A stretch of 63,847 nucleotides of DNA, counting the filler. It is 5 parts of 5 records of this genome, joined end to end, with 100 filler letters (N's around TTAATTAATTAA, not from the genome) between each part and the next. Parts side by side here need not be neighbours in the genome. Positions count along the whole stretch, not along the records: positions 44,875 to 58,217 come from SRR22947725_6411; 4 more parts are not named here. The stretch is one strand, 5' to 3'. The notes below the pieces were generated by a model. The model worked only from the letters and a program-made list of their open reading frames with translations. It was not told where the DNA came from and ran no database searches. Positions within the stretch are counted from its first letter, which is position 1. Every line of letters starts with the position of its first letter. Both the position numbers and the translations under genes were made by a program. Positions 38,601-63,093 of this stretch are shown in pieces.

Positions 38601-38626
38601 GGACTAAGGGGGGATGGGTAAGAAAA

Positions 38627-39478: not shown

Positions 39479-39552
39479 GTGTCTTGATAGCTCTTCCAAT
39501 TATGGGCAAGCTTCCAAATTTAGAAATTAACGAGAAAATGCAAGGATATATA

Positions 39553-40527: not shown

Positions 40528-40552
40528 ATCTCGGTAATTCGAATTATTTTAC

Positions 40553-40575
40553 TATTCAAAATTACTATTTGAATA
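40553..40575. promoter_or_regulatory. Candidate operator upstream of the IclR gene
   Basis: Inverted repeat TATTCAAA-N7-TTTGAATA; adjacent perfect palindrome TAATTCGAATTA at 40535-40546. Confidence 0.35.
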
Positions 40576-40599
40576 TCTTTCCACAGAAAGAATTAAATT

Positions 40600-41379: not shown

Positions 41380-41409
41380 GAACTCTGACCTGAGCGAAAG
41401 TGTAGCTTT

Positions 41410-42921: not shown

Positions 42922-42933
42922 AATTTTAAAAAT

Positions 42934-44271: not shown

Positions 44272-44293
44272 ATAATCAAGATTGGGTTACGAA

Positions 44294-44774
44294 CTATTCT
44301 TCCGCAGTTGAAACCAATTCCAATCTTGGTTTCATGGTTTGGTAGAGTTCGCGACTTATCCAGGCATCCGTGGCGGCATAGTTAATCTGGGCAGGAGAGA
44401 GTGGTCTTTTTTGCCAGTTGGAAAGCTGAGCCGATTTTGAAAGACGTTGGTTAAAGAAAATAGCAGTTAAATTCCGGAGTCCAGTTTGTTCAATTTTGAG
44501 AGACTGTGCAATTGAGGCAAGATCTTGGAAACCGTCCGGTTTAAAAGGTTCAATCTTTTGAAGATTGATCAGGTCGTCTTTAAGGGCAACTCCAGTTTTA
44601 ATGATGGAGGGGTCTTCGAGAATCTTTACCAACGGGCCCAGTTTCTTCATAACTGGGTGGAGTGTAAAAAGAAAGGCTTGATCTGCTGTTGCCAACTGAA
44701 TCAGTGCGGGCGGGTTGTTGGGACCTTTCTTGAAATTGGGCTTGCACTCGATGTCGAATCCAAGGACTTTTTCC
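44294..44774 (-). CDS. DEDDy 3'-5' exonuclease (WRN/RNase D-like), 5' truncated
   Basis: Frame stays open to the contig edge: GKVLGFDIECKP...ALIQLAT; KTGV...D, SNW....L...Q..YAATDA. Confidence 0.85.
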
Positions 44775-44874
44775 NNNNNNNNNNNNNNNNNNNNNNNNNN
44801 NNNNNNNNNNNNNNNNNNTTAATTAATTAANNNNNNNNNNNNNNNNNNNNNNNNNNNNNNNNNNNNNNNNNNNN
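44775..44874. other. Artificial contig linker
   Basis: 44 N + TTAATTAATTAA + 44 N. Confidence 0.98.
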
Positions 44875-45121
44875 ATTCATGGTGCATGATTTTCCTGCGC
44901 GATTGTGTTGCAAGCTTTAAATAAAACTCTTCAAACTGGTTACTATAATAAAGACCATGATCTTCACCAAAAGCTAATAAAAAATCTTTTTTAAGTGCTT
45001 CTCTTGTCTCTTTTGAACTTGCCATCATTCGGAAATATACAATTACAGACATCTCCAAAAGTGGTAGCTCATCCATCTGCCCAACTGGAGCACCGCCCCT
45101 AAATTCTTGATGTATAGTCAT
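44875..45121 (-). CDS. Hypothetical protein, truncated by contig end
   Basis: ATG with GGGGTGG SD-like sequence; RGGAPVG..ELP.LE motif recalls a conserved roseobacter hypothetical. Confidence 0.6.
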
Positions 45122-45165
45122 AATTCCACCCCATTAATAATAGTTTCGAGTTGACCAATCAATAC

Positions 45166-45182
45166 CTTACTAATTTAGTCAA
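45166..45182. promoter_or_regulatory. Candidate Iron-Rhodo-box
   Basis: Minus strand TTGACTAAATTAGTAAG vs recalled consensus CTGACTRAWTYAGTCAG; ~45 nt upstream of the 45121 start. Confidence 0.4.
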
Positions 45183-45433
45183 CTATTTATAAATCTACTA
45201 TTTATCTGAGCTTGTCAACACACTTGAACATTTCCAATAATAAAAAATACATTTAATTAAAAAAATAAATTTTTAATTCAAAACTTTGCCTGAAAGCAAA
45301 TCAACAAATTTTCGCAGCTTTAAAGGTAGAAACTGTTTATCCGAGTAAATAATGTTATTAAAACTTGGAAGCATGGGATAGCAAATTAAAGTGAAGTAAA
45401 ATTTGCAAGATTAATCCGCTAATATTTTAGTAA

Positions 45434-46141
45434 TCAACTAATTAACCAACCACCATCAACATCTACTGTCGTTCCAGTTACAAACTTATTTTTAACCACA
45501 AACATAATACCTTCTGCCACTTCATCTGCTGTTCCAGCTCTCGGTATTAGATTATCTTTTGTCATATTCTCGTATAATTTTTCTCTATCAGGCCCTTTAA
45601 GGGTAACCATTGGGGTATTTATTGTTCCAGGTGATACAATATTAATTCTTATCCTAGGAGAAACTTCTTTTGCCACTGCTCGGGCCATTGCCTCTACTGC
45701 GCCACCAACAGATGAAAGTGCTATTTGTCCAAATTTACAATTTCTTCCTGGTGAACCCGATACAAGAGTAATTGAACCCCCATCAGTTAAATGCTTTGAA
45801 CCATGGCGAACAACGTTTGCATATCCCCACAATTTATCAAAAGATCCTTTAAAACCATCCATATCCATTTCTAAAAATGGACCAATTGCTCGTTTTCCAC
45901 CAGTAGCTGAACTTATTAAAATATCAAAAGGAGCAAGCTTTTCTAAAAGTATCTCTACACCCACTTCATCTCTCACATCACAAGCTACAAATTTAACCCC
46001 ATTTGGTAATTCTGATTTTTTTTCAGATGATCGACCTATAGCAACAACCTCTGCTCCAGCTTTTTCCAACATCTTAACACTTGCTAGACCAATCCCAGAT
46101 GTGCCACCAAATACTATTGCTTTTTTATTCATAAAATCCAT
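45434..46141 (-). CDS. Short-chain dehydrogenase/reductase (atypical, no YxxxK seen)
   Basis: GGTSGIG, RINIVSPG.I.TP, TG.TVDVDGG. Confidence 0.85.
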   Translation of the reverse strand: MDFMNKKAIVFGGTSGIGLASVKMLEKAGAEVVAIGRSSEKKSELPNGVKFVACDVRDEVGVEILLEKLAPFDILISSATGGKRAIGPFLEMDMDGFKGSFDKLWGYANVVRHGSKHLTDGGSITLVSGSPGRNCKFGQIALSSVGGAVEAMARAVAKEVSPRIRINIVSPGTINTPMVTLKGPDREKLYENMTKDNLIPRAGTADEVAEGIMFVVKNKFVTGTTVDVDGGWLIS

Positions 46142-46174
46142 CTGAAGTATCCTTTTAAGTTACTATCAATTTTC

Positions 46175-46867
46175 TCACGTTCGAGCTTTCTCAAAATCAT
46201 TCCAAGCAGCTTCGAATGCATTGAAATCGAAACCTTTTTTACGTGCTGGATCCAATACCAATTTTTCTGTTTCCTGCATTTTCAAAATAGAAGCTTCTAA
46301 ACCGTCTATGACATCAATAGGAACTACAACTGCACCATGTCTATCAGCATGTACTAAATCACCCGATTTAATATTCAAACCAAAAACATTTATTGGCTGG
46401 TTAACAGTGCGAACATGCACAAACCCATGGCTTGGGCCTATACTTCCAGCAACAACAGGGAAGTCTTCTGCCATATCACCTAGATCTCTCATTACGCCAT
46501 TAGTAAGCGCACCTGACATACCGAAACCTTTATGGATAGTTGTATTTACTTCGCCCCAAAAGGCTCCAATGCAATTTGGATAATCCAGATCTTCAACAAC
46601 TGCAATTGACGGTTTAACACTTTCTGACATTGCTCTGTAATAGCTCATACGACGCTCTCTAATTACAGAAACTGCTTCTGTAGGTGGTTCAATTGCTGCT
46701 ATTTGAGCAGTAATAGCATAGCCAACAATGACACCTTTTTCATCAGAGGCAAGCATAGTACCCCTCGTGAAGTCATTAAAACCTCTCTTACCTTGGGCAA
46801 CCTCTATTGCATTACAAACTGTTGGAGTATCCACAGATTGTAATAAATTTAAAAGTGATATTTTCAT
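46175..46867 (-). CDS. RraA/HMG-aldolase family protein
   Basis: DTPTVCNA, VGYA.TA, GAFWGEV, TNG..RD, GDLVHADRHG; ATGA overlap with the upstream gene. Confidence 0.85.
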   Translation of the reverse strand: MKISLLNLLQSVDTPTVCNAIEVAQGKRGFNDFTRGTMLASDEKGVIVGYAITAQIAAIEPPTEAVSVIRERRMSYYRAMSESVKPSIAVVEDLDYPNCIGAFWGEVNTTIHKGFGMSGALTNGVMRDLGDMAEDFPVVAGSIGPSHGFVHVRTVNQPINVFGLNIKSGDLVHADRHGAVVVPIDVIDGLEASILKMQETEKLVLDPARKKGFDFNAFEAAWNDFEKART

Positions 46868-47559
46868 GTATCCTCCAGCCAACTAGCAAGCGCTATAGTT
46901 GTAATTTTAGGTTGTTCCAATGTTGGAAGATGGCCTGCATCTTCTATAATTTTTAATTTACTATTTTCTAAAAGAGTATGCATTAATTCATGACGCTCTA
47001 GTGGGCATAAAACATCATGCCTACCACAAAGTACTAAAGCTGGGCCTTTGTATGATCGTAATGTATTTTTTTGGTCAACCCGCTCTCGAAGCGCAATGGA
47101 TTGACGGATAAATACATCGGGGCCAATATCAAGCGCCATATCCATGCAAAGCTTTAATATCTCAGTTTTTCTAACTCCATCAAAAAGGTAATTAGGCTTC
47201 ATTTCATCACGAATAATTTCTTTGAGGTGCCCTTTTTTAATTGCATCTATTTGCGGCTGCCGCTGTTTTGCTACTTCAGGCAACTCAGCCAGTGGATTTG
47301 TGTCAAGCAATGCTAACCGCTCTACCCTTTCTGGGGCTTGAGATAAAATTTCCATTGCTACTATCCCACCCATTGAAAGGCCTGCTAATGCAAAAACTGG
47401 TGGTGTATTATTTAAAATAACAGAGGCCAATTCGGAAATTGATTCATAATCAGAAATTTGTGAAAAATGCACTTCTCTTTGCTTGGATAACTCTTTTATT
47501 TGAGGGGCAAAAAGGCGTTCATCACACATCATTCCGGGAAGAAAAACAAGCGGTGTCAT
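46864..47559 (-). CDS. Alpha/beta fold hydrolase
   Basis: FLPGMMCD, GLSMGG nucleophile elbow, GRHD, AGHLPTLE. Confidence 0.9.
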   Translation of the reverse strand: MTPLVFLPGMMCDERLFAPQIKELSKQREVHFSQISDYESISELASVILNNTPPVFALAGLSMGGIVAMEILSQAPERVERLALLDTNPLAELPEVAKQRQPQIDAIKKGHLKEIIRDEMKPNYLFDGVRKTEILKLCMDMALDIGPDVFIRQSIALRERVDQKNTLRSYKGPALVLCGRHDVLCPLERHELMHTLLENSKLKIIEDAGHLPTLEQPKITTIALASWLEDT

Positions 47560-48680
47560 GAGGCTAAGGCAGCACCTTCAGATAGAGATTTGAGCTTCGC
47601 ATAGGCAATTTGTGGGTCAACAGCTCCAAAACCAGCAAAAGTACCAAACCCACAGTCTGATCCTGCAATAACTCTGTCTTTTCCTACGATATCAGTAAAA
47701 CGATCAATTCGCTGCGCAACAAGTTCTGGATGTTCAATGAAATTAGTTGTCGTATCAACTACGCCAGGGACTAATATCTTATTATCAGGAATCTCAGACT
47801 TTCTATCTCTGAATACTGTCCATTCATGCGCATGTCTTGGGTTGGAGGTTTCAAATAATAAATATCCTGCATTTGCAGACATCAAAGTAGAAAACATTTT
47901 ATCCATAGGAATATCACAACAATGAGGGCCTTCATAATTCCCCCAACAAATATGAATTCTAACTTTTTCTTCTGGCACATCCTTTAAAGCATAATTTAAT
48001 GCTTCAACATGTGAAGCCGCAACTTTAAGAAATTCATCATCGCTTAAATCATTAAAAAGCATATGCCTTGAGAGAGCTAAATCGGGGCAATCTAATTGCA
48101 GATCCAAGCCAGATGCGACAATTGTTTCATATTCTGCTTTCATGGCCTCCGCTAAAGCAGATAAGTATTCTTCCCGTGTTTTATAAAAATCATTCTGTAA
48201 AAATAACGAGATTACTCCTGGAGAGGCTGCATTCATGAAACCTCTTGTTTTTCCATTAGCAGACATTGCAGCCTTTAAATTGCTAATATCTTTTTGTAAT
48301 TCCCCTTGTCCCTTTGAAGAAACTGGCCCTGTACACATTGGTCTAGCATATTGAGGCGTACCTCCGTCATTCGCAAGGCGTTCCAAAAAAGTAGGGAACA
48401 TCTTAAGGTCAGCAGGTGCATTTCGGGGGCTATCTCCAGAAAAACCTGTATAACGATCCTTTACATATGTTGCATAAGAAATTTTTGAAGTTTCACCATC
48501 ACTAACTATATCAATTCCAGACTCTGTTTGTTTTTTAACGGTCTCATTAACAGCATTTGTCATTGTTTTATCAAATAATGATTCATCGTAAGAAACACCA
48601 TTTTCGCGGGCAAATATAAAGTCAACAACCTCTTGAGATCTCGGAAGACTGCCAACGTGCGAAGTAAGAATTTTTGTCAT
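47556..48680 (-). CDS. Cobalamin-independent methionine synthase II family (single-barrel MetE-fold Zn enzyme)
   Basis: SHVGSLPR, SDGE, LQLDCP, IHICWGN, PGVVD, SDCGFG; 374 aa, no folate-binding N-terminal barrel. Confidence 0.85.
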   Translation of the reverse strand: MTKILTSHVGSLPRSQEVVDFIFARENGVSYDESLFDKTMTNAVNETVKKQTESGIDIVSDGETSKISYATYVKDRYTGFSGDSPRNAPADLKMFPTFLERLANDGGTPQYARPMCTGPVSSKGQGELQKDISNLKAAMSANGKTRGFMNAASPGVISLFLQNDFYKTREEYLSALAEAMKAEYETIVASGLDLQLDCPDLALSRHMLFNDLSDDEFLKVAASHVEALNYALKDVPEEKVRIHICWGNYEGPHCCDIPMDKMFSTLMSANAGYLLFETSNPRHAHEWTVFRDRKSEIPDNKILVPGVVDTTTNFIEHPELVAQRIDRFTDIVGKDRVIAGSDCGFGTFAGFGAVDPQIAYAKLKSLSEGAALAS

Positions 48681-48700
48681 AATTTTTCTCTCAAATAATG

Positions 48701-49669
48701 TTAAATATTAGTCCATGTAGGCCCTGCAGGGTCATCATTAGATATCACACGATACATGCTTGCCTCTCCAGCCATAGAAGGTTCAAGTATATGTGAGAAT
48801 CCTGCAGGTAAAATGCATGTATCACCTGGATTCAAAGTAACTGTTTCATTTTCCCACCTTAAAAACCAATGACCACGCATTGGCATTAAAACAATTGAAT
48901 GTTTAAATGTTAAGACTTCATTATGAAATGATCCTCGAGTAACAAAATCCACTTCAAAACCTGGCTTATCTGGCAAAACTGCATCTTCACCAATTACTTT
49001 TATTGGAGACTTACCTGCCAAACCCATCAAATCTAGGTAGCGTGCTACATGCCCTGGGATCACATTTATAGCGAGCGGTTCTGGCATCTTCTTTAATTTT
49101 TCGCCTGACAATACGGGCATAGGTGAAACATCTGTAGGCAGCTTTTGCCCTTTTTTGCTATCATAAAGTTTTCCATTGTCTCCCAAGATTAAACCATGAT
49201 CTGCGGCATCTTGAATAACTTGTGGAGCCCATGTGACACCACCTCCTGCATCATCACCACCTAAAACGGCCATAATCATTCCATAATCTATTCCAATATT
49301 TTCAAAGCCCCGAAATATCCCAGTAGGAATATTTATTATATCACCTTCTTCTAATACTACTTCACCTGCGTCGCCCCATCTTCCCCAAAAAAATCTCCAT
49401 CTGCCTTTAAGCACAAAAAAAACTTCAGCTGTGGTATGGCTATGCAAAGAGTTTCTACATCTTGGAGGTTGACCTGCTGCTCCTATATTAAATCCAGGGG
49501 TATCTTTTATATGTACATGCTGATCAGGGCTTTCAGAAACACCACCTCCAATTATCGTGAAGTTTTCTTTTTGATCACTGCCAGGAGTATGTGCGTCAAT
49601 AAAGGCAGTCTTACATGGGACTAAATCTCCATATCGAACGATACGCGCTTCTATTTCTAATGGTGTCAT
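48701..49669 (-). CDS. Cupin domain protein (bicupin-like)
   Basis: SLHSHTTAEVFFVLKG, GD.INIP.G.FR.F; second degenerate barrel LNPGDT..LPAG..H. Confidence 0.8.
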   Translation of the reverse strand: MTPLEIEARIVRYGDLVPCKTAFIDAHTPGSDQKENFTIIGGGVSESPDQHVHIKDTPGFNIGAAGQPPRCRNSLHSHTTAEVFFVLKGRWRFFWGRWGDAGEVVLEEGDIINIPTGIFRGFENIGIDYGMIMAVLGGDDAGGGVTWAPQVIQDAADHGLILGDNGKLYDSKKGQKLPTDVSPMPVLSGEKLKKMPEPLAINVIPGHVARYLDLMGLAGKSPIKVIGEDAVLPDKPGFEVDFVTRGSFHNEVLTFKHSIVLMPMRGHWFLRWENETVTLNPGDTCILPAGFSHILEPSMAGEASMYRVISNDDPAGPTWTNI

Positions 49670-49673
49670 TTTA

Positions 49674-50642
49674 CTATCCTGTCTTCATCGCGATTTGTTT
49701 CCAAATCGAGGTTTCATCATATAAAGTATATTCACGGCGAATTCCCCATGGGCCAAATTCAACATGACTTGCTCCCATAACATGAACTTCTGCCCCAGTG
49801 GGTTTGCCAAAAGCGCCCCAACCTTCATGCTTTCCAGTCAAGCTCCATCGAATTGCAGATCTTGGAGACATCATTGGATCTTCTCGACCAATTTGATGGT
49901 CAATTGAAAATACAGACGTTGGAAATGCTGCACGTAACTTAGTCCAGAAATTATCGACACCATCTGTAGAATATAGTTCAACCCCTCCAGGATAGAATCC
50001 TGTAACTGCACGATCATATTCAGAAGGGATAACACTCAAATCAGCATTCATAATTTTATTTAAAATATCTGCATATTTAGAGCCCCATTTATTATCATTT
50101 CCATGGCCAGTATATGGCCCAACTTTATCAATTGATGGATGAAATGGTTTAATGCATTTTTCTGGGCCGCCTTCTCGAGCAATAAGATCTAAAGCATATT
50201 CTTTTGGATCCCAACCTAATTGGCGCACAACAGCTCCCTGATCTCTAATTAACCATTCATCATTAATTTGATTATTTATGGCATGACAATCAGCTATAAC
50301 CCTATATCGCAGCTTTTTTCCTGTTGCTTTTCCATATACTCCATCACCAAGATGCGTTGCAGTTGTTAAGATACGATGAGAGGATAACATTCCTTCTTCA
50401 GGCGTACCTGACCAAATAACATCTTCGCCCAAAAGCCTGCGATCAGGGAATTCAGCAAGTGTTGACATAGTTGCGCCAATAACGCCTTCATTACCAAACA
50501 CAATTGATCCAGGTGATCTAACTGGAATATCTTTAGAATAATAATGATTAAGTGTAGCCAAACCTCTATCTTCCCAAATCTCTTTTGTAATTCCTAAAAT
50601 ATAATCAGGGAAATTTTTAAACTGGTCTGAGAAACCTTTCAT
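49674..50642 (-). CDS. Tandem SnoaL/ester-cyclase (NTF2-like) protein
   Basis: EIWEDR, LAEFPD, ATHLGDG.YG.ATGK, EWL.RD; second half LRAAFP, W...G.H.G...FG.PTG. Confidence 0.78.
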   Translation of the reverse strand: MKGFSDQFKNFPDYILGITKEIWEDRGLATLNHYYSKDIPVRSPGSIVFGNEGVIGATMSTLAEFPDRRLLGEDVIWSGTPEEGMLSSHRILTTATHLGDGVYGKATGKKLRYRVIADCHAINNQINDEWLIRDQGAVVRQLGWDPKEYALDLIAREGGPEKCIKPFHPSIDKVGPYTGHGNDNKWGSKYADILNKIMNADLSVIPSEYDRAVTGFYPGGVELYSTDGVDNFWTKLRAAFPTSVFSIDHQIGREDPMMSPRSAIRWSLTGKHEGWGAFGKPTGAEVHVMGASHVEFGPWGIRREYTLYDETSIWKQIAMKTG

Positions 50643-51658
50643 GAGGTCCATCCTTTCGGTACTTTTGCAGAACTGCGAATAATCAAAGGGCTTTCAACCT
50701 TTATATGTCTTGGCTCTAGTGATGGGTTAGTAATTTTATCCAACATAAGAGAAACTGTTTCTTCAACCATAATATTTGAACGTTGGCGCATTGTAGTAAG
50801 ATCATATGCAGCCAATGCAGCAGGCGGCACATCGTCGTAACCAATAACACTTACATCATCAGGAATTTTCAAGTTTAGTTCATTGCGCAATACATCCATT
50901 ACAGCAAATGCCATGGAATCTTGCACAACAAAAACAGCGTCAGGATAATTTGGTTTGTTAAACATTTCTCTGGCAACTTCTTTTGCACGCTCCACAGTAA
51001 AATCGCCTAATGCATGTGCAGCTAATTGTTGATTTTCTTCCTTCAATCCCTCACGAAAACCCGCCTCACGATCTCGATGTGTTGATGCACCTTCCCAACC
51101 ACCAATATAAGCAATTTTTTTGTGACCAGCAGCTAGTAGAAATTTGGATACAGTTTTACCACCCTCAAAATTGTCAGATGTAACTGCTGAATGCTCTTTT
51201 GACTCTTGCGCTCTGTTAAAGAGCACAACTGGAACTCCTGCAGCTTCACAGCGCGCTGTAAGATCACTGGATATACTAACACTAGCAGCAATTATTCCAT
51301 CTACCTGATAATCTAACAATCCATCAATAACGTGGTCAGTTGATTCACTATCATTTGATGCCATAAAAATCAAAACATGATAACCAAGAGCTTGCAAAGC
51401 ATTTGAAATTTTTTCTAATGCTACAGGATAAAAATAATTGTCCAAATAAGCTACAACAAGGCCAATAATTCTACTTTTTCCAGTAATCAATGAACGTGCT
51501 AATATATTTGGTCGATAGCCAAGTTCAATAGCGGCAGCGCGAACCTTCAGCATAGTCTTTGAACTAGCGGAGGCGCCAGGTGTAAACACCCTGCTTACAG
51601 CTGATTGGCTTACGCCAGCTAACTTAGCTACTTCAAGAGAGGTGACTCTATCTACCAT
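50639..51658 (-). CDS. LacI family transcriptional regulator
   Basis: VTSLEVAKLAGVSQSAVSRVF, LGYRPN..ARSL, SDNF.GG, IP.DVSVIGYDD; TGATG overlap at 51658. Confidence 0.95.
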   Translation of the reverse strand: MVDRVTSLEVAKLAGVSQSAVSRVFTPGASASSKTMLKVRAAAIELGYRPNILARSLITGKSRIIGLVVAYLDNYFYPVALEKISNALQALGYHVLIFMASNDSESTDHVIDGLLDYQVDGIIAASVSISSDLTARCEAAGVPVVLFNRAQESKEHSAVTSDNFEGGKTVSKFLLAAGHKKIAYIGGWEGASTHRDREAGFREGLKEENQQLAAHALGDFTVERAKEVAREMFNKPNYPDAVFVVQDSMAFAVMDVLRNELNLKIPDDVSVIGYDDVPPAALAAYDLTTMRQRSNIMVEETVSLMLDKITNPSLEPRHIKVESPLIIRSSAKVPKGWTS

Positions 51659-52416
51659 CAGCCTGCAGTCCAACCTCCATCAACAATCAAATGAGTTCCA
51701 GTAACCAATGATGATGCATCAGAAGCCAGATAAACAGCAGCACCCATTATATCTTCCACCTCACCTATGCGCCCAAGTTTGATTTTTTGCTTTATTAGAT
51801 TAGCTCTTTCCACATTATCAAAAGTTTCTTTTGTTAGGGGTGTTCGGATAAATGTTGGGCAAATAGTGTTAATACGGATATCAAATGGGCCCCATTCAAT
51901 TGACATGCTTTTAACCATACCTTCAATTGCATGCTTTGAGGCAGAATAAACCGTTCTATCAGTACCTCCAACATGACCCATTTGTGATGATATATGTATG
52001 ATTGAACCACTTATTCTAGCAGTCTTCATGGCTTTTGCCGCATACACTGATAAAAAATATGCTGATTTTAAATTTAAGTCGATTACAGCATCAAAATCTT
52101 CAGGCAATGTATCAAATGCTGGATTATGCCTTGCCATACCAGCAGAATTTATAACCACATCAAAAGGATCTAACATAAGCTTCTCTAAAGCATTCAAATT
52201 TGTTTGATCTAAAGCTAATGCCTCTGCATCAAAGCCTCTGGCATTTATTGATGAAACTGTTTTATTTAGAAGATCTATTCCACGTGATACACAAATTACT
52301 TTTGCTCCAGACTGTGCCATTGCAACTGCACAAGCTTGGCCAATTCCAGAAGATGCACCCGTAACCAATGCACGTTTTCCTTTTAATGAAAATGAGGGCA
52401 ATGAGGGTAAAATCAT
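51658..52416 (-). CDS. Classical SDR oxidoreductase
   Basis: TGASSGIG, NSAG, SSQ, YSASK, ICPTFI.T, VTG....VDGG. Confidence 0.92.
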   Translation of the reverse strand: MILPSLPSFSLKGKRALVTGASSGIGQACAVAMAQSGAKVICVSRGIDLLNKTVSSINARGFDAEALALDQTNLNALEKLMLDPFDVVINSAGMARHNPAFDTLPEDFDAVIDLNLKSAYFLSVYAAKAMKTARISGSIIHISSQMGHVGGTDRTVYSASKHAIEGMVKSMSIEWGPFDIRINTICPTFIRTPLTKETFDNVERANLIKQKIKLGRIGEVEDIMGAAVYLASDASSLVTGTHLIVDGGWTAG

Positions 52417-53465
52417 TTACTTGCTCCAATTGGGTAAGAAACATTTACTGGAACACGTGCCTTGTTAAATTCTCGCAAACGCGCAAACACGTCAACGCCT
52501 AATTGATAATAGACATCAAGCAAATCAACCAGCACCCAGTTTTCACGGATTAAGTCACCTTCCACCCTCCAAAAATCTAAACTTCTCATCGTAATTTCTT
52601 GACCTGATGGGGCAATACCCAGCCAACCATCTCCTGTAACAGTCATTTGCATATTGGGCCATCCAGTAGCTACAACATAAGGCCCGTCCCCAAAAAAATC
52701 ACATGTTAAATCACCAGTCGTGCCACCTTTGCGGTCAGGCAAAGCATTGAGAAATGGAATTTGATGCCAATTCCTAAAGCCTTCTAAACCTCGCATTGAA
52801 CCAATACCTGCAGGTCCATACCAATTGAAAGATGGATGCCAGTATTTCTCAGATTGCATTATTTCAGGGCCACCTTCAGAAGGGTGCCGAGATAAATTAG
52901 TTAACATTCCGATTACTACATCTAAACTATTTGCAGATTGATTGAGCGTTCGATTTACAGAAATTAACCCATCTTGGCTGGCAGGCCCAGGTATAAACAA
53001 TTCACGTCCCAAACTTGGTGACATTGGCCAAGCACCTGCTTGCATCATAAGTTCTGGGATATCCCATATTGATTGAACCTCCACAATTTTGTCATCAACA
53101 AAACAATAAAACTCATGGAAACGCATGTGAACTAAATGTCCTGTTGGCGGTATGTCCAAAAATGGTGAGACAAATGTGCCAACATACGAACCACAACAAC
53201 CTACCCAATATTTATTACCAGCTGTTTGTCCACTGACAAGGATTGTATCTCTGCGCTCAATATCTGGAATTGCCTCTACCAAAGGAGCATAACAATTGTT
53301 ATAAAATTCACTCTTTAAAACATCACCAAACGGATGACATATGTGAATTTTTACATCTATTGAAAATGTTTTTTCAATAAAAGATCGCACAGCCAATTCA
53401 TCAAAATCATACATTGCAGTTAAAAACGGCTTTATAATTTCCTGATTTTTCTGCGCGATATTCAT
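52413..53465 (-). CDS. Tandem SnoaL/ester-cyclase (NTF2-like) protein
   Basis: FLDIPPTG...MRFHEFY; WYGPAGIG, WLGIAPSG..ITMRSLDFWRVEG..I.ENWVLVD. Confidence 0.8.
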   Translation of the reverse strand: MNIAQKNQEIIKPFLTAMYDFDELAVRSFIEKTFSIDVKIHICHPFGDVLKSEFYNNCYAPLVEAIPDIERRDTILVSGQTAGNKYWVGCCGSYVGTFVSPFLDIPPTGHLVHMRFHEFYCFVDDKIVEVQSIWDIPELMMQAGAWPMSPSLGRELFIPGPASQDGLISVNRTLNQSANSLDVVIGMLTNLSRHPSEGGPEIMQSEKYWHPSFNWYGPAGIGSMRGLEGFRNWHQIPFLNALPDRKGGTTGDLTCDFFGDGPYVVATGWPNMQMTVTGDGWLGIAPSGQEITMRSLDFWRVEGDLIRENWVLVDLLDVYYQLGVDVFARLREFNKARVPVNVSYPIGASK

Positions 53466-54794
53466 TTATTTTTCTACTTCACGAAAAGCAGCACCTTCAC
53501 CATATGGAACGTTTATGCCTCCATACCTTCGCACTCGAATATTACATTGTTCCGCATGCCCTACAAATCCTTCTAACATGCACAATCTACTCCCATATTC
53601 ACCTACAAGTGTTGCAGCTTCATCAGTTAATATTTTTTGATATGAATGCGTTTTTAAAAACTTACCAACCCATAATCCACCAGTGTATCTGCCTGCTTTT
53701 TTTGTAGGTAAAGTATGATTTGTACCAATTACTTTATCACCATTTGAAACATTAGTTCGAGCCCCCAAGAACAATGCTCCATAACAAGTCATTTTTTCTA
53801 AAAACCAATCATCTCGGTCAGTCATAACCTGTACATGCTCTGAAGCTATTTCGTTGGCAACTATTAACATCTCTTCATAAGTGTCACACAAAATAACTTC
53901 ACCATAATCAGCCCAGCTTACAGAAGCAGTTTCTGCAGTTGGTAATATCTTAAGCAATCTATCAATTTCATTAAGTGTATCTTCAGCTAATTTGCGAGAA
54001 TTAGTTAACAAAACTGCTGGACTATTATACCCATGCTCAGCTTGACCCAATAAATCTGTCGCACATAATTCTCCATCAACAGTCTCATCAGCAATAACCA
54101 TAGTTTCTGTAGGCCCAGCGAATAGATCAATTCCTACACGACCAAAAAGTTGCCTTTTAGCTTCTGCTACAAATGCATTTCCAGGACCAACAAGCATATG
54201 GACAGGTTCTATACTTTCAGTGCCAATGGCCATTGCTCCAACTGCTTGAATTCCCCCCATTACATAAATTTCATGCGCACCACCTAGATGCATTGCAGCA
54301 ATGACCGCTGCATTAGGCTTACCTTCAAAAGGTGGAGTACAGGCAATAATTCTAGGAACTCCAGCAACTGTTGCAGTAGCAATCGACATATGGGCTGAAG
54401 CAACCATAGGGAACTTCCCCCCAGGCACATAACAGCCAACAGATTGTACAGGAATATTTTTATGTCCTAAAATAACACCAGGGATTGTTTCAATTTCAAT
54501 ATCAAGCATGCTATCTCTTTGTGCCTTGGCAAAATTTCGAACCTGTTCTTGGGCAAACTTAATATCTGAAAGTTCACGATCTGATAAGGAAGCTATCAAA
54601 TCAGATATTTCTTTTTCTGTAAGCTTAAAGTTTTCAGGCGAGTAGTTATCAAACTTTGCAGAAAGTTCACGTACTGCAGTGTCACCATCAATTTCAATAT
54701 TTTTTAATATTTCTTCAACAATAACTTTTGTTTTAGCATCGTCCTCAGCTCTTTCTGCATCTGGCTTACCGCTTTTAAGATATTCTATAGTCAT
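53466..54794 (-). CDS. Histidinol dehydrogenase homologue (HpsN-like paralogue, substrate unknown)
   Basis: GCYVPGG, GGIQA, VGPGN.FV.EAK, ID..AGPTE, QAEH, SEH, GDK..GTNH.LPT, EG..GH. Confidence 0.88.
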
Positions 54795-55327
54795 TAATTA
54801 CTCCCAATTTCAGGTGGGGTTTTCGTACCATGATCAAAAGCCTCCCAGCCATGTCCGTTAAAAACATCAATGCCTAATTGTGCAAGGACGTGAGGAAAAT
54901 CAACCATTACCCAATTATCTGTAATTTTCCCATTTTCTACTTTCCAGAAATCCATATATCGGATTTGGATTTTTTTTCTTGTGGCTTCAACACCCATAAA
55001 AAGGCCTGAATGAATTGCTTCTTGGCGGCCAAATGCAGCAGCCCATTCACCCATATATAGTCGTGCTTCATCTATACAAACTTTTTCAGAAAATGCCGCT
55101 TGAAATGGTTTCTGCCAGTTTTCTTGAAATTCTTTTATTCCATTTTTCGTTCCACATCCGGCATTACCCATCCAGCTAAAGCCTTGGCTAAAAAATTCTC
55201 CAATATCAGCTATACGGTGATCATTTAGTCCATCCACCATATTTTCAATTACCACACGAGTTTCCTCAGTTTTGGACATATCTGTATTTTGAGTTAACTC
55301 TGCTTGTTTTGGTCGTAACCCACTCAT
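54794..55327 (-). CDS. SnoaL/ester-cyclase family protein
   Basis: FQAAF, H.G.FMG..AT.K....[21 protein letters not shown]. Confidence 0.82.
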
Positions 55328-56208
55328 CCTTTTACAGCTCCCGCAGTTAAGCCACTTACAATTTGGCGTTGAAAAAATAAAATTAAAATAAATAATGGAG
55401 CCGTCGCTGATACCACTGCAGCAACAGCAAACATTACATTACCCTCTGTTTGTGTTGTTCCTAAAAAACTTGCAATCTTTGGAACCATTGTTTGATTAGC
55501 TTGGCTTAATAATGTGGCTGTTACAGTAAAATCATTATAAGCTAGAAGAAACGAGAATAAGCCTGTTGTTACGACTCCGGGCCACATTACAGGAATAATT
55601 ACGTGGCGAAATGCCTGAAAGCGAGTACACCCATCTACCATAGCGCTTTCATCTAAGTCTTTTGGTATATTAAGAAAAAAACTATGTAACATCCATAATG
55701 TAAAAGGTTGATTTATTGCTACCATAACAATTATTGCAGTAGGAATATGCCCCCAAAGATTCCATTCAAAAAATGGAAGCAAATACCCTGAAACCAAAGT
55801 TATGTGAGGCATTGCTCTAAAGACTAATGCTAACATTAATAGATAAAATGCATATCTTTTTCCTGATCTCGCCAATGCATATCCACCTAAAGTACCAAGC
55901 GTAAGTGAAATAATAACTACAGAAAATACAATAATTCCTGTGTTAATTGCAGCTAACCAAAAACTTTTTGCAATCCACGCACCGAAATAACCACTCCCTG
56001 TGAAAGCACCACCAGTTTCGACTTGTGTTCGAACTCCAGTAATAGCGTTTGTCCAATCCGCTTTTGAGAAAAAGTCGCCTTGGACCTTAAAAGAACCCCA
56101 AAGCGTCCAGAAAAAAGGAAAGCTTGCTGCAATAATCCAAACTAAAACAAACCCCCATATTATCATATTTAAAACTGGCGAACGTCGCTGAGCTAAACTA
56201 GGCATCAC
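55324..56208 (-). CDS. Carbohydrate ABC transporter permease (CUT1, MalG-like)
   Basis: [41 protein letters not shown]. Confidence 0.93.
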   Translation of the reverse strand: MMPSLAQRRSPVLNMIIWGFVLVWIIAASFPFFWTLWGSFKVQGDFFSKADWTNAITGVRTQVETGGAFTGSGYFGAWIAKSFWLAAINTGIIVFSVVIISLTLGTLGGYALARSGKRYAFYLLMLALVFRAMPHITLVSGYLLPFFEWNLWGHIPTAIIVMVAINQPFTLWMLHSFFLNIPKDLDESAMVDGCTRFQAFRHVIIPVMWPGVVTTGLFSFLLAYNDFTVTATLLSQANQTMVPKIASFLGTTQTEGNVMFAVAAVVSATAPLFILILFFQRQIVSGLTAGAVKG

Positions 56209-57236
56209 ACAACCTTCCTATTAAATTCTCGCCATGTCCGAATTAGAACTGGTATTAATAACACACTTACACCAATAATAGTTAGAACTGATGTTGCTCC
56301 TGCGGATCCAAAAAACTGATCTTCGTTATTAGAAATATCATTATAAATAATCCATGAAAGTGAAGTTGCATTTGCTTGAGCAGAAAAGCCTACTATTGGC
56401 TCAAATACTCGAAAATTATCCATTAACTGGATTAATAAAATAAATATAGTCAGTGGCATTAAGTGAGGAAGAACTACATATTTTGTGCGCTCCCAGCGTG
56501 ATGCACCATCTATCATTGCTGCTTCAATAGTATCACTAGGAACAGTCTGTAGCCCTGCATAAAATACTATGAAAGCAAATGGAGATGAATGCCATACGCC
56601 ATAGACCATAAGCATTATCCAAGTAAGCAATGGTGATGCTTTTAAAGACAGATTTGGATCATCAAAAATTTCTTGCAGAATTGAACCAATAATTCCTTGT
56701 GCATCAATCATCCAAAATAAAATTAAAGAACCAATGAGTGGTGTAACAATCATTGGTAGTAATGAAATAAAAATAGTTGGACCTTTCATAACCTTAGGCA
56801 AACTATTTACACCTAGTGCAATTAAAAAACCAAAAAATAAGACAAAAGGTGTGACTATAAATGTATATGTTAGAGTAAAAGCTAAAGCTCGGTAGAATGG
56901 TAAATTTAGGCTCATTGATATAAAACTTATAAAGCCTTCACTTTCAATCCAAGCCTGTTGAATTTCTTTAAATGCTAAGTGGTTTCGGTTTGTGTATGTC
57001 CCAAATCCATTAAACTTTCCAAGCGGGTTTTCTAATTTTAGTTTTTTTGTTTCTTCGACATCTATAACTAATTCTTTCTTACAACCAAAAGGTCCACAGT
57101 TTTCAACTTCATTCAAAACTGCTTCATGCTCAATATGGAGTGATTGCACGACTACTGAAACAATAGGTAACGCAATAAATAACAACATTGTTATTAAAGA
57201 AGGTAATATAAACCAAAAAAAAGTACGGTTTTTCAT
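56205..57236 (-). CDS. Carbohydrate ABC transporter permease (CUT1, MalF-like)
   Basis: W...PF....YAGLQ.VP....EAA.IDGASRW, MD.FR.F. Confidence 0.93.
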   Translation of the reverse strand: MKNRTFFWFILPSLITMLLFIALPIVSVVVQSLHIEHEAVLNEVENCGPFGCKKELVIDVEETKKLKLENPLGKFNGFGTYTNRNHLAFKEIQQAWIESEGFISFISMSLNLPFYRALAFTLTYTFIVTPFVLFFGFLIALGVNSLPKVMKGPTIFISLLPMIVTPLIGSLILFWMIDAQGIIGSILQEIFDDPNLSLKASPLLTWIMLMVYGVWHSSPFAFIVFYAGLQTVPSDTIEAAMIDGASRWERTKYVVLPHLMPLTIFILLIQLMDNFRVFEPIVGFSAQANATSLSWIIYNDISNNEDQFFGSAGATSVLTIIGVSVLLIPVLIRTWREFNRKVV

Positions 57237-57257
57237 CTTGATCGCCAGAAATAATTT

Positions 57258-57287
57258 AAAATAGGAGGAAGCATTACACTTCCTCCT
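57258..57287 (-). terminator. Stem-loop after the binding-protein gene (partial terminator or mRNA-stabilising hairpin)
   Basis: Perfect 9-bp stem AGGAGGAAG/CTTCCTCCT with 7-nt loop, followed on the minus strand by ATTTT. Confidence 0.6.
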
Positions 57288-57293
57288 GTGAGT

Positions 57294-58217
57294 TTATTTT
57301 AAGAAACCTTTTTCTTTAGCAGCAGTAGTATAAGCAGCTTCAACATCTGCTAAAGCTTGCTCTGCACTCTCAGTACCTTGTAAGAAATCAGAAATTTCTC
57401 CACCTAGCGCACCATGTAAAGTTCCCATAAATGGCAACATTGGATAAGGTGCAGCACCATTAGCAGCAGTTTCAGAAACTCCAGCAGATGCAGGACTTGG
57501 CTTATAACCTTCAACTAACCATACAGCCGCATCATTATTTGCTTTAACCATGTCGGATGAAATTCCGTTCATTAAAGCAATAAATGTTGCCTCTGCATCT
57601 TCGTCAGATACATTTGTGGAAATACCTATGCCATCCCACCAAAGTGTAGATGCAGGTCTTGCACCATTGCCCCACAATGGAGCAGACGAAAGAACAGTAT
57701 TTGAAGATACACCATCTACTGAACCTTCTCCGTCAAGTACCGCGCTTCCTCTAGAGCCCCACATTGTTGCTAATGCTAAGTTTCCAGCTTCCCATTCTGC
57801 TTGAGTAGCGTTTGAATCATAAGTTAAAAAATCTGGATTTGAATAAGCAACAAGAGATTTAAGCATATTAAGAGTTGCAACACCATGATCATTATTTATG
57901 GATACTTCAGCGGTTCCAGATTTAAATAAATCTGCACCTGTTCCCATGTACATATTCACAAATTCTTCACCTAAATTCCAACCTGCTTTAGTGTTTAAAG
58001 CAACAGGATATTCTAACAGTCCAGCACTTCGGATTGCATCAGCTGCAGAAATAACTTCTTCATAGGTTCCAGGTATATTGCTTACACCAGCTTTTTCCAA
58101 CATATCAGTTCTAGTAAATAAATGTTGGGCATTAGCCATAAATGCAACAGCCATAACTTTGCCATTTACCGTAATTAATTGGCTTTTATTTAATCCAGAG
58201 CCATGCTTTGCTACCAA
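57294..58217 (-). CDS. Carbohydrate ABC transporter substrate-binding protein, 5' truncated
   Basis: Open from the contig edge; P.TYEE...AA, C-terminal S.EQAL.D helix; upstream of two CUT1 permeases. Confidence 0.85.
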   Translation of the reverse strand: MVAKHGSGLNKSQLITVNGKVMAVAFMANAQHLFTRTDMLEKAGVSNIPGTYEEVISAADAIRSAGLLEYPVALNTKAGWNLGEEFVNMYMGTGADLFKSGTAEVSINNDHGVATLNMLKSLVAYSNPDFLTYDSNATQAEWEAGNLALATMWGSRGSAVLDGEGSVDGVSSNTVLSSAPLWGNGARPASTLWWDGIGISTNVSDEDAEATFIALMNGISSDMVKANNDAAVWLVEGYKPSPASAGVSETAANGAAPYPMLPFMGTLHGALGGEISDFLQGTESAEQALADVEAAYTTAAKEKGFLK

Positions 58218-58317
58218 NNNNNNNNNNNNNNNNNNNNNNNNNNNNNNNNNNNNNNNNNNNNTTAATTAATTAANNNNNNNNNNNNNNNNNNNNNNNNNNN
58301 NNNNNNNNNNNNNNNNN
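58218..58317. other. Artificial contig linker
   Basis: 44 N + TTAATTAATTAA + 44 N. Confidence 0.98.
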
Positions 58318-58524
58318 TGGTGCCAAACAACTAGACCAAGTATCAATACCAATTTCTTCTTTTAACTCACGTATAAGCGCAATCTCTGGCGTTTCCATTG
58401 CTTCAACCTTACCACCTGGAAATTCCCACAAACCCTCCATAGATTTACCTTTGGGTCTTTTTGCTAATAACACTCGCCCATCGCGGTCAATAAGTGCAAC
58501 CGCTGATACTAATACCATTTTCAT
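58318..58524 (-). CDS. mutT: 8-oxo-dGTP diphosphatase, truncated by contig end
   Basis: [25 protein letters not shown] Nudix box; follows argJ as in Alphaproteobacteria. Confidence 0.88.
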
Positions 58525-59828
58525 GATCTATAATCTGCGTTTATTGCAACATATTGATGAGTCAGATCACACGTCCAAACTGTAGAACTTCCATTGCCAA
58601 CACCTAAATCTACTGTAATTTTTAAATCTTCATTTTTCATATAATTTTGCCCTAAACTCTCATTATAGCTTGGAGCAACCCAGCCATTTTCTGCAACTAA
58701 AATGTTACCAAACCAGATAGAAATTTTATCTCGATCTGCGGGTTCTCCTGATTTTCCGACTCCCATTACAACCCTTCCCCAATTAGGGTCTTCTCCCGCA
58801 AGTGCTGTTTTAATGAGTGGCGAGTTTGCAATGGCAAGGCCAACAGTTTTTGCTGATGAATCAGATACAGCGCCATTAATCAATATCTCTAAAAATTTTG
58901 ATGCTCCCTCTCCATCTCGAACCACCTGTTTTGATAAATTAGACATTATAGCATGTAACTCATCAGTAAATTTCAACGCTTCAGCGCTAAACTCATCTGT
59001 AATTTTTTTACAATCTGATTGCCCTGTTGCAACAATTATCAAGCTATCAGATGTTGATGTATCACTATCTACTGTAATAGAATTGAAAGTTTTTTCGTTA
59101 ATTTTGGTTAAAATATTTTGCAGTATATTTTTTTCAATTGATACGTCTGTAAAAATATAAACTAACATAGTAGCCATATCTGGTGAGATCATTCCTGAAC
59201 CTTTTGCAAAGCCAGCAATGTTTACAGGGCACCCACTTATTAAAAACGAACTACCTGCTCCCTTTGGAAAAGTATCTGTTGTCATTATTGCTCGAGCAGC
59301 AGATTCGGCAGAATTTTTATTTAAATTAAATTTTAATTCTTGAATTTTTTTTATAATCTTTTCATGAAGTAGTTTTTCACCAATGACACCCGTTGAGGAT
59401 GTAAATATAGAATTAGTTGGGATTTTTAATTCATTAGATATAGCTTCACAAATCTTTGATACGGATTTTTCACCATATGAACCTGTAAATGCATTAGAAT
59501 TACCTGAATTAACTAATATTGCTATTGGAGAGTTACTTGAATTAATTTTTAGTTTTTTTTGGCAATCTAATACACTTGCAGATCTTGTACTTGAACGTGT
59601 AAATACACCTCCAATAGAACTCCCCTGTATGCATTCTATTAGCATGACATCATCACGGTCTGAGTATTTAATATTTGCTGCTGTTGAAGCGTAGCGAACA
59701 CCTTTAATAACTGGTAGTTTTGGAAACCCATCCTTTGGTGCTAATGGGGAAATCTTTTTTATATGATACTTAGCTTTTAGGCCCTTAAGCTCTGCTTCTA
59801 ATTGATCAATTGTTTTATTATTTTTCAA
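58521..59828 (-). CDS. argJ: Glutamate N-acetyltransferase/amino-acid acetyltransferase
   Basis: ISPLAP, NSGNSNA, STGVIG, IMTTDT, KGSGMI.PDMATML, DTSTSD, RDGEGA, DPNWGR, YRS; AAGGA SD before TTG 59828. Confidence 0.96.
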
Positions 59829-60247
59829 AATTTAATCCTTAATTCAAAAATTCAATATAAAAAATTTCTTTAAAGTTAAATGGTGGTTTAAAGATATCTA
59901 TTTTATTTATTTTTTGAAATCTATTAATTTTTTTCCTTAATTTTGATTTCTACCAAATCATTATTTTATGGCGTTTATACAAAAATAATATTTTCTTGAT
60001 AAAAATCATAAAGTCTCTTCACTTATACTAATCTTTTATAGTGTAATCTTATACCTTTTGCTAAGGTGACGTTGACAGTACTGAAACACCTGCTTACATG
60101 TTTTTTCTGACGTTTTTGTAAGGAATCTATTTCTTTATGATCTTATTAAGTGGCTTTATATAGCCCTACAAGAGCAATGAAGAGAAAATGGTTTTAATAT
60201 CACATCAGTTTGTCATTAAATTTTGGCACCAGTAAGGAATGTAAGTA

Positions 60248-63091: not shown

Positions 63092-63093
63092 AT

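Follow-up and report, generated by a model that had tools for sequence, protein, structure and literature searches.

An operon around an HpsN-like dehydrogenase with a different substrate loop, conserved across roseobacters, points to an undescribed catabolic pathway

The window analysed here, a stretch of 63,847 nucleotides made of five contigs joined end to end, carries at positions 45434-58217 a run of 14 open reading frames (ORFs), all on the minus strand, that includes a dehydrogenase of the HisD (histidinol dehydrogenase) family. A first-pass annotation, made from the letters of the sequence, had described these 14 co-directional genes as a tightly coupled catabolic operon and had assigned a domain to each. 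ORF and Pfam scans agree with that description, and every domain call of the 14 genes is upheld. In order of transcription, the genes and features are as follows.

57294..58217, minus strand: CUT1-type ATP-binding cassette (ABC) substrate-binding protein, C-terminal 307 aa only (Pfam SBP_bac_1)
57263..57287, minus strand: GC-rich stem-loop, terminator-like with 11 pairs, within the 57 nt that separate the genes for the binding protein and permease 1
56205..57236, minus strand: ABC permease 1, 343 aa (Pfam BPD_transp_1)
55324..56208, minus strand: ABC permease 2, 294 aa, GTG start in a 4-nt overlap with the preceding stop (Pfam BPD_transp_1)
54794..55327, minus strand: single-domain SnoaL-fold protein, 177 aa (Pfam SnoaL, SnoaL_2)
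53466..54794, minus strand: HisD-family, HpsN-like NAD/Zn dehydrogenase of the "GKFPM" clade, 442 aa (Pfam Histidinol_dh, E = 6e-132)
52413..53465, minus strand: double SnoaL-fold protein A, 350 aa (Pfam SnoaL, two stretches)
51658..52416, minus strand: short-chain dehydrogenase/reductase (SDR) of sugar-acid type, 252 aa (Pfam adh_short_C2)
50639..51673, minus strand: LacI-family regulator, likely start ATG at 51658 (Pfam LacI and Peripla_BP_1/3/4)
49674..50651, minus strand: double SnoaL-fold protein B, 325 aa, likely start ATG at 50642 (Pfam SnoaL, two stretches)
48701..49669, minus strand: bicupin, 322 aa (Pfam Cupin_2)
47556..48680, minus strand: single-domain MetE-like Zn enzyme, 374 aa (Pfam Meth_synt_2)
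46864..47559, minus strand: alpha/beta hydrolase, 231 aa (Pfam Abhydrolase_1/6)
46175..46882, minus strand: RraA-like protein, putative class II aldolase or decarboxylase, likely start ATG at 46867 (Pfam RraA-like)
45434..46141, minus strand: second SDR, 235 aa (Pfam adh_short)

The coupling noted at first pass is borne out by the junctions, nine of 13 being overlapping or abutting. Six are 4-nt ATGA/GTGA overlaps, two are 1-nt TAATG/TGATG overlaps and one reads TAAATG, while the remaining four are gaps of 4, 20, 33 and 57 nt. For the LacI, second double SnoaL and RraA-like genes, the start used in these measurements was the first in-frame ATG after the start of the longest ORF. The stem-loop at 57263-57287 lies where ABC operons often have an attenuating hairpin. 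Over the region as a whole, seven terminator-like matches were found against a shuffle mean of 9.2, which is no enrichment.

The dehydrogenase scores 440.9 bits against PF00815 (cutoff 27) and 424.9 bits against TIGR00069 (cutoff 243.8), models that are passed by HisD and by HpsN-type proteins as well. HpsN acts on 2,3-dihydroxypropane-1-sulfonate (DHPS), and its solved representatives are the closest structural relatives of the window enzyme within the same fold family: 8v35 from Cupriavidus pinatubonensis (377 bits) and 8wwe (372 bits), a 407-residue chain labelled (R)-DHPS dehydrogenase and presumably identical with the Ruegeria pomeroyi enzyme described in PMC11131964. HisD structures score lower, at 218-257 bits, with 4g07 the best (257) and E. 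coli HisD, 1k75, at 218. In an alignment with E. coli HisD (b2020), the Zn and catalytic residues QAEH, EH (within SEH), the Asp of GD, NH and GH are all kept, as the first-pass annotation had claimed; these are common to HisD and HpsN. The enzyme also carries GDK at residues 352-354, sharing this lysine with HpsN, where HisD has GDY.

A sharper distinction is found in the loop at residues 126-130, which reads G-K-F-P-M. The accessible text of the study of the Cupriavidus enzyme, CpHpsN (PMC11382572), defines G-R-Y-A/S-H as an HpsN-specific motif at this loop, the last His of which is a Zn ligand in the free enzyme and forms a hydrogen bond to the sulfonate in the complex. The same text gives G-S-A-P-L for HisD at this position and describes Lys353 of CpHpsN, the lysine of GDK, as a second contact to the sulfonate. 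Aligned to HpsN, the window enzyme therefore has Met in place of the sulfonate-binding His and keeps GDK, while the HisD-type G-S-A-P-L and GDY are both replaced. Retention of the sulfonate-contacting Lys together with loss of the His argues for an anionic substrate that is not a sulfonate.

The altered loop is nearly invariant. G-K-F-P-M occurs in 62 of 67 dehydrogenase copies from related and plasmid loci, the five exceptions being one GKYPM, one GDKT variant and three GGYPM copies from Halomonas, and it occurs in all 120 of the best database matches listed for the enzyme. For an HpsN-type query, 117 of the 120 best matches listed keep G-R-[YF]-[SAC]-H. The first-pass annotation had instead pointed to GDK and AGPTE as distinctive. 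Both were rejected as marks of novelty, because GDK is the HpsN state and AGPT[ED] is present in HpsN-type and HisD-type representatives alike; the real discriminator is G-K-F-P-M versus G-R-Y-A/S-H. Within this family we also observed a 21-kb locus of Halomonas urmiana that holds two dehydrogenase copies with a GGYPM loop (locus positions 1891-3177 and 13669-14955), both 67.6% identical to the window enzyme.

A tree with HisD and validated HpsN had been proposed at first pass as the way to place the enzyme. Our maximum-likelihood tree has 62 rows, comprising 51 of 58 full-length representatives drawn from the best 150 of a whole-library search, nine locus orthologues, the window enzyme and E. 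coli HisD. Garbling or frameshifts led to the omission of seven representatives (P0261, P0273, P0275, P0291, P0295, P0346 and P0376), and HpsN was anchored through two representatives checked against the PDB, P0251 and P0266. A quick tree search and a careful run agree in placing the dehydrogenase in a GKFPM clade of its own with support of 100/98. A separate HpsN-type clade (100/95) holds P0251, which scores 737 bits to 8v35, and P0266, which scores 556 bits to 8wwe; the two clades are joined at 90/61 only. By this placement, the dehydrogenase falls outside both HisD and the validated HpsN clade, so that the clustering with validated HpsN named at first pass as refuting its reading is not seen. 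Two further GDK/GDR lineages without the His (GKYPM, GKYPL), P0245 and P0243, are the closest outgroups to the GKFPM clade, and P0245 has E-N at the catalytic E-H position of the family. These lineages suggest that the HisD family may hold several further unassigned specificities.

The same tree bears on the simplest alternative, that the gene encodes a second histidinol dehydrogenase whose operon context is incidental. The NCBI name "histidinol dehydrogenase" and the passing TIGR00069 score are what this proposal has in its favor. However, all 42 GDY-type rows, E. coli HisD among them, lie beyond a 97/91 branch from the window enzyme, which has GDK instead of GDY and lacks the G-S-A-P-L loop. 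The gene remains translationally coupled to catabolic genes in 41 loci, and HisG has no match on the operon contig or in 84 related loci, although genes for histidine biosynthesis need not be clustered. This explanation is effectively excluded. The first-pass remark that no his genes are nearby holds only for the 13.3-kb contig, since the other contigs of the window are not its neighborhood.

Automatic names do not separate these enzymes. The JGI name "sulfopropanediol 3-dehydrogenase" is given to the GKFPM clade and to true HpsN-type proteins alike, as is the NCBI name "histidinol dehydrogenase". No Amylibacter name appears among the 120 best HpsN-type matches listed, which is not evidence that true HpsN is absent from that genus.

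The operon had been called an orphan, a description that does not survive a wider search. A one-genome-per-species scan seeded with double SnoaL protein A, which has 5322 detectable homologues, returned at least 582 confirmed matches in species-representative genomes, and the best 80 of these were taken as related loci. Most belong to Rhodobacterales (HTCC2150, Planktomarina, Planktotalea, Ruegeria, Phaeobacter italicus, Leisingera, Epibacterium and Pelagimonas); the others include Rhizobiaceae and Phyllobacteriaceae metagenome-assembled genomes (MAGs), Halomonas and Grimontia, and an Oceanospirillaceae MAG. Genes were counted in the 51 loci with full 10-kb flanks, on the same strand and at 40% identity or more.

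The dehydrogenase gene adjoins the double SnoaL gene in 41 of these 51 loci and is missing from the other ten. Among the 41, partners are retained at high frequency: the SDR in 40, LacI in 39, the second double SnoaL in 40, the bicupin in 39, the single SnoaL in 37, the MetE-like gene in 36, the RraA-like gene and each of the transporter genes in 35, and the hydrolase in 32. With the last SDR set aside, the complete set of 13 genes is present in 21 full-flank loci, and the gene order of the relatives is that of the window, so the expectation that the set would be conserved together is confirmed. The hydrolase gene is missing from the closest relatives (loci L014, L017 and L024). The last SDR (45434-46141) occurs in none of the 51 full-flank loci; it is a lineage-specific addition outside the conserved set, which corrects the first-pass account. 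Identical copies of this SDR carry the name Amylibacter sp., and their accession numbers run in one series with those of the other operon genes.

The operon is also incomplete in the window. The 5′ part of the binding-protein gene is cut by the contig end, and position 106 of the profile is where the Pfam SBP_bac_1 match starts; the complete relative in L017 has up to 466 aa, against 307 aa here, and orthologues in related loci are 41-82% identical. Relatives add a MalK-type ATPase gene ahead of the binding-protein gene (L017), and also a divergent pair encoding a fourth double SnoaL protein and an Amidohydro_2 enzyme. The window contig thus holds the binding protein and both permeases of a CUT1 importer, and the MalK/UgpC-type ATPase is found only upstream in relatives (L017, Marinovum).

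Further contexts are found on plasmids and chromids, where orthologues of the dehydrogenase (77-86% identity) lie outside the gene order of the window. Eight of these were opened. Marinovum algicola pMaD9 has the full marine cluster without the SDR, under generic names, and Sinorhizobium medicae pSMED01 combines an ABC transporter with the dehydrogenase, SDR, LacI, bicupin, RraA-like, amidase, hydrolase and SnoaL genes and has no MetE-like gene. Roseibium algicola has a SnoaL, ABC and LacI unit and, after it, DctPQM, dehydrogenase, SDR, LacI, cupin, hydrolase and RraA. Smaller sets occur in Antarctobacter heliothermus from a Skeletonema culture (LacI, TAXI-type tripartite ATP-independent periplasmic (TRAP) transporter, dehydrogenase, SDR, RraA and HpcH aldolase) and in Sulfitobacter pontiacus (LacI, TAXI-TRAP, HpcH aldolase, dehydrogenase and SDR, with HpcH and without RraA). 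Agrobacterium larrymoorei has the dehydrogenase and SDR only, Rhizobium johnstonii 3841 pRL8 has the dehydrogenase followed by pntAB and acs, and Ancylobacter polymorphus pA has it alone near TetR-cyclase-SDR genes. In the last two plasmids we observed, near the dehydrogenase gene, a trio of TetR, "cyclase family protein" and SDR genes and genes of the molybdenum-cofactor or xanthine-dehydrogenase families.

Beyond these eight, Halomonas smyrnensis pairs TAXI-TRAP, DAO, Ldh_2, HpcH aldolase and 2-hydroxyacid dehydrogenase genes with the dehydrogenase, SDR, SnoaL, bicupin, hydrolase and RraA genes. Ruegeria conchae TW15 has, at positions 4590-12068 of its locus, a second unit of LysR, ATPase, binding protein, two permeases and two double SnoaL genes with no dehydrogenase. 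The core is also carried on plasmids of Rhizobium, Agrobacterium and Paracoccus, and is therefore not exclusively marine as first supposed. A Sinorhizobium meliloti copy was sought as well, but in the plasmid collection the gene is confined to S. medicae and other rhizobia. An earlier contrast with hps clusters, said to use TRAP or major facilitator superfamily transport, is likewise blurred, because genes of the GKFPM clade also lie beside TRAP systems.

These comparisons allow a variant pathway for DHPS or another C3-sulfonate to be weighed, in which the enzyme would be a functional HpsN with a different sulfonate loop and the ABC system would import DHPS or a conjugate. Such a pathway would account for the closeness of the solved HpsN enzymes, the retained sulfonate-contacting Lys, the resemblance of the partner SDR to HpsO (141 bits) and the automatic JGI name. 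In addition, a preprint (10.1101/2024.12.10.627767) reports high expression of a gene labelled "hpsN" in an Amylibacter MAG during a diatom bloom. However, all 120 close homologues listed have Met where the defining His of HpsN would stand, whereas 117 of 120 HpsN-type proteins keep their motif, and the tree separates the two clades. Pfam searches of the 14 genes found no SuyAB, Xsc or CuyA family, no HpsP-type medium-chain dehydrogenase/reductase and no sulfite exporter, and orthologues at 77-81% identity reside in soil rhizobia in non-sulfonate contexts. We regard a sulfonate pathway as improbable. The SnoaL-fold, bicupin, MetE-like and RraA-like proteins found here have no counterpart in hps clusters as these are described in PMC11382572.

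We read the operon instead as two modules, a conserved core and a variable feeder. The core would comprise the dehydrogenase, an SDR resembling KduD and HpsO, and an enolate-type lyase (here the RraA-like protein), usually accompanied by the bicupin and the hydrolase. The feeder would comprise the CUT1 importer, three SnoaL-fold proteins and the MetE-like enzyme, to which relatives add a fourth SnoaL protein and Amidohydro_2; the MetE-like and Amidohydro_2 enzymes would be part of the feeder in marine Rhodobacterales. Across contexts the dehydrogenase recurs with the SDR and with a lyase of RraA or HpcH type, as would fit a four-electron oxidation followed by cleavage, the chemistry suggested at first pass.

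Among the core partners, the SDR at 51658..52416 is nearest to a set formed by KduD, gluconate 5-dehydrogenase and HpsO. Its best PDB match is KduD 4hp8 at 157 bits, with HpsO 8wwf ranked fourth of 92, and its top NCBIfam match is KduD at 193 bits against a cutoff of 339. Orthologues of the SDR adjoin the dehydrogenase gene in Sulfitobacter (59% identity) and S. medicae (62%). The S. medicae copies of LacI, bicupin and RraA-like protein are 59%, 71% and 63% identical to those of the window, respectively.

The KduD matches raise a route for uronates. A KduI-like bicupin and a KduD-like SDR would produce 2-keto-3-deoxygluconate, the dehydrogenase would convert this to 5-keto-4-deoxyglucarate, and a GarL- or RraA-like aldolase would release pyruvate and tartronate semialdehyde without a kinase. 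KduI is a bicupin and GarL belongs to the HpcH family, members of which adjoin the dehydrogenase in Sulfitobacter, Antarctobacter and Halomonas. The CUT1 and LacI types are also compatible with such a route, and no kinase is present in the cluster. However, the KduD score falls under the curated cutoff, no solved protein, not even KduI, matches the bicupin in sequence, and Pfam searches of the 14 genes found no polysaccharide lyase or unsaturated-uronyl hydrolase family. The Zn-chelate geometry that can be inferred from the accessible text of PMC11382572 would also favor a ligand group one carbon from the carbinol, which ketodeoxygluconate lacks. A uronate route is accordingly given little weight.

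In the bicupin, H51, H53, H76, H78 and E82 are invariant in 16 orthologues, with H-x-H-x3-E in the N-terminal cupin. It has no match in a PDB sequence search, and its AlphaFold model (predicted local distance difference test score, pLDDT, 77.5) matches generic bicupins at a template modeling (TM) score of ∼0.4. The best fold matches are quercetinase YxaG, 3-hydroxyanthranilate dioxygenase and salicylate 1,2-dioxygenase, with equal scores for oxalate decarboxylase and seed storage proteins. Weak PcaD-type NCBIfam matches under cutoff are found for the alpha/beta hydrolase. The RraA-like protein scores 33.9 bits against the LigK model TIGR02798 (cutoff 304.5) and at most 29 bits in the PDB, to an uncharacterised protein and a "cellulase" entry, with no solved aldolase above 29.

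The MetE-like enzyme, at 374 aa, is a single domain without the N-terminal domain of E. coli MetE (753 aa), and shares the catalytic-domain fold of core or short MetE-like methyltransferases. Positions aligned to the His/Cys/Glu/Cys Zn ligands of E. coli MetE are kept in 45 of 45 sequences, as are those aligned to the homocysteine-type G-S, Glu and Asp. It lies in a catabolic operon, is absent from the rhizobial variant and falls far under the cutoffs of all NCBIfam methionine-synthase models (best score 91.3 bits, cutoff 406), and its PDB sequence matches reach at most 27 bits. The intact Zn and homocysteine-type positions make alkyl transfer to a thiol possible, as for example in a demethylation.

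Several of these proteins together could also serve a pathway for a ring compound: a C7 cyclitol such as 4-deoxygadusol, a mycosporine-like amino acid, a methoxylated aromatic acid, or else a reductone or lactone, ascorbate for example. The SnoaL proteins and hydrolases would strip substituents or dehydrate the ring and the MetE-like enzyme would take off an O-methyl group, after which the bicupin would open the ring with O2, the dehydrogenase would turn a -C(OH)-CH2OH branch into -C(OH)-COOH, and the RraA-like aldolase would split the resulting 4-carboxy-4-hydroxy-2-oxo acid. The RraA-like protein, the PcaD-like hydrolase, the bicupin and the Amidohydro_2 enzyme of relatives recall the lower pathway of gallate and protocatechuate 4,5-cleavage. 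In particular, the RraA-like domain is shared with the 4-hydroxy-4-methyl-2-oxoglutarate/4-carboxy-4-hydroxy-2-oxoadipate (HMG/CHA) aldolase LigK/GalC, and it too stands at the end of a catabolic operon with a PcaD-like hydrolase, although dioxygenases of LigAB or GalA type are absent from the cluster. Ring-cleaving dioxygenases are the best fold matches of the bicupin, and the Zn site of the MetE-like enzyme is intact. No published mycosporine catabolic genes were found in the literature searched, which included the accessible part of PMC12904256.

However, the bicupin match is at TM ∼0.4 and is equalled by oxalate decarboxylase and seed storage proteins, and all aromatic-pathway equivalog models score far under their cutoffs. 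Transporter, regulator and SDR all belong to types associated with sugars or sugar acids. Furthermore, minimal cores in Sulfitobacter and Antarctobacter lack bicupin, hydrolase, SnoaL and MetE-like genes, and so the substrate of the dehydrogenase need not derive from a ring. Taken with these points, a ring pathway appears doubtful.

The proteins assigned to the feeder offer little resolution by sequence. The single SnoaL protein scores 29.4 bits against NF033407, the SnoaL/DnrD subfamily model (cutoff 200), whereas the double SnoaL proteins have no match to this model and show only the fold-level Pfam SnoaL domain; their profile finds only generic cyclases in the PDB, at 26 bits or less. The ESM Atlas returned only "ester cyclase" clusters, and no polyketide synthase gene is present in the cluster. 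Permease 1 has weak UgpA/MalF-type NCBIfam matches, all far under cutoffs, and none of the CUT1 importer genes has an equivalog model at cutoff. The full-length L017 binding protein finds assorted sugar-binding proteins in the PDB at 43 bits or less. Pfam searches of the 14 genes also found no Fe-S hydro-lyase and no family dependent on thiamine diphosphate (ThDP) or pyridoxal phosphate (PLP).

On balance, we favor a pathway in which a small anionic hydroxy compound is imported, unmasked, oxidized by four electrons and cleaved by enolate-type chemistry. The feeder would import larger or modified precursors and unmask conjugated or methylated forms of the core compound, whose substrate end would be -CH(OH)-CH2OH. 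The dehydrogenase would then use two NAD+ to convert the primary alcohol beside a Zn-bound hydroxyl (or amine) into a carboxylate, in the manner of HisD and HpsN; like HpsN, it probably performs a two-step four-electron oxidation of an alpha-hydroxy primary alcohol. Next, the SDR would oxidize the neighboring secondary alcohol to give a 2-oxo acid. Finally, an RraA-like or HpcH-type enzyme would split the 2-oxo acid through a metal-bound pyruvate enolate, by retro-aldol reaction or beta-decarboxylation, to give pyruvate-type products. Both lyase families are known for cleavage by way of metal-bound enolates.

As substrate of the core we would guess first at a C4 sugar acid that is the carboxylate isostere of DHPS; examples are L-threonate, D-erythronate and 3,4-dihydroxybutanoate. 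The first two would yield tartrate on oxidation by the dehydrogenase, and the third would yield malate. TRAP systems typically carry carboxylates, and the repeated pairing of the clade with such systems, added to the kept Lys and lost His, suggests that the anionic group is most simply a carboxylate. An isostere of this kind would fit a six-membered Zn chelate, a geometry inferred here from the binding mode of sulfolactate and histidine in the accessible text of PMC11382572.

The gene content, its conservation, the separate clade and the altered loop are observed here, whereas the substrate and each chemical step are proposals. Several observations weigh against the scheme. The change from His to Met could reflect another way of binding a sulfonate, and the RraA-like protein is as far from validated aldolases as its scores above indicate, while the bicupin fold matches are generic. 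The dehydrogenase gene has no adjacent SDR gene in three of the eight opened contexts (pRL8, Ancylobacter and Marinovum), and its association with pntAB and acs on pRL8 is outside what the scheme explains. Routes for threonate and erythronate described in the accessible parts of PMC12994016 and PMC12540250 use other enzymes. Also, the roles given to the SnoaL, bicupin and MetE-like proteins are guesses drawn from fold families.

The genomic source of the operon has to be judged from its own contig. The linkers between the five contigs are at 16996, 28342, 44819 and 58262, each consisting of ∼45 N, TTAATTAATTAA and ∼45 N, and the contigs span 1-16950, 17050-28300, 28400-44774, 44876-58217 and 58318-63847, with approximate edges at the first two linkers. 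The operon contig is bounded as follows.

44775..44875, no strand: artificial contig joint (N run, TTAATTAATTAA, N run), left bound of the operon contig
58218-58317: matching artificial joint (N linker), right of the operon contig

Because 58217 is a contig end, sequence outside 44876-58217 provides no genomic neighborhood for the operon, which fills its 13.3-kb contig (GC ∼0.38). Along the window GC falls from 0.51-0.58 in the first two contigs to 0.43-0.49 and then to 0.32-0.40. Identical copies of the operon proteins carry the name Amylibacter sp. in NCBI records, as do identical copies of SecA and ArgJ of the adjoining contig, whereas PurL of contig 1 (GC ∼0.55) clusters with proteins named Pseudomonadales. 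From the drop in GC and these conflicting names, the bin behind the window is probably mixed, and an earlier argument from retention in a compact, AT-rich genome therefore rests on a concatenation of doubtful unity. Together with the two-module scheme and the core substrate proposed above, we think it reasonably likely that the source is a roseobacter of Amylibacter type and that its contig carries the greater part of a conserved catabolic operon under LacI control.

Three further ORFs lie near the contig edges. Downstream of the operon, at 44876-45121 on the minus strand, an 82-residue ORF fragment runs into the contig end; it has no match in Pfam or NCBIfam and no counterpart among the 80 related loci. 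On the contig to the right, ArgJ (435 aa; 58521-59828, minus strand) is unrelated to the operon, and it is followed through an ATGA overlap by the start of an ORF at 58318-58524 (minus strand) that is cut by the contig end and appears MutT/NUDIX-like by eye.

The pathway had been put forward at first pass as undescribed, and no description of either the cluster or the GKFPM clade was found in the literature searched, which excluded subscription journals and supplements. What appears to be new is an operon that, like hps, pairs a HisD-family dehydrogenase with an SDR but has a different substrate loop and different partners. The same gene order extends across many roseobacter genera and some Gammaproteobacteria, and the marine metagenome contigs that carry identical copies number in the hundreds (dehydrogenase, 301; MetE-like enzyme, 281; last SDR, 296). 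This abundance and recurring order suggest that the cluster probably handles a common metabolite, and the operon is abundant in bloom-associated roseobacters.

A bolder extension, which we consider unlikely though somewhat less so than the alternatives above, is that the GKFPM clade forms a third substrate class of the HisD family, acting on a carboxylate isostere of DHPS (for example, L-threonate to tartrate). The roseobacter operon would then be an unrecognised and globally abundant route in which enzymes of NTF2/SnoaL fold act first on phytoplankton-derived conjugates or ring compounds, ascorbate-derived or of mycosporine/gadusol type. If so, part of the "hpsN" signal in ocean meta-omics, the highly expressed Amylibacter "hpsN" of the diatom bloom included, would report this pathway and not the use of DHPS.

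Cultured carriers exist, among them Ruegeria, Phaeobacter italicus, Leisingera, Epibacterium, Marinovum algicola, Antarctobacter (from a Skeletonema culture) and Sinorhizobium medicae, making the substrate question directly addressable. Annotation pipelines merge the GKFPM clade with hisD or hpsN, and ocean counts of hpsN may consequently include it and overstate the turnover of DHPS. The contrast between G-K-F-P-M and G-R-Y-A/S-H offers a simple filter by which the two could be told apart.

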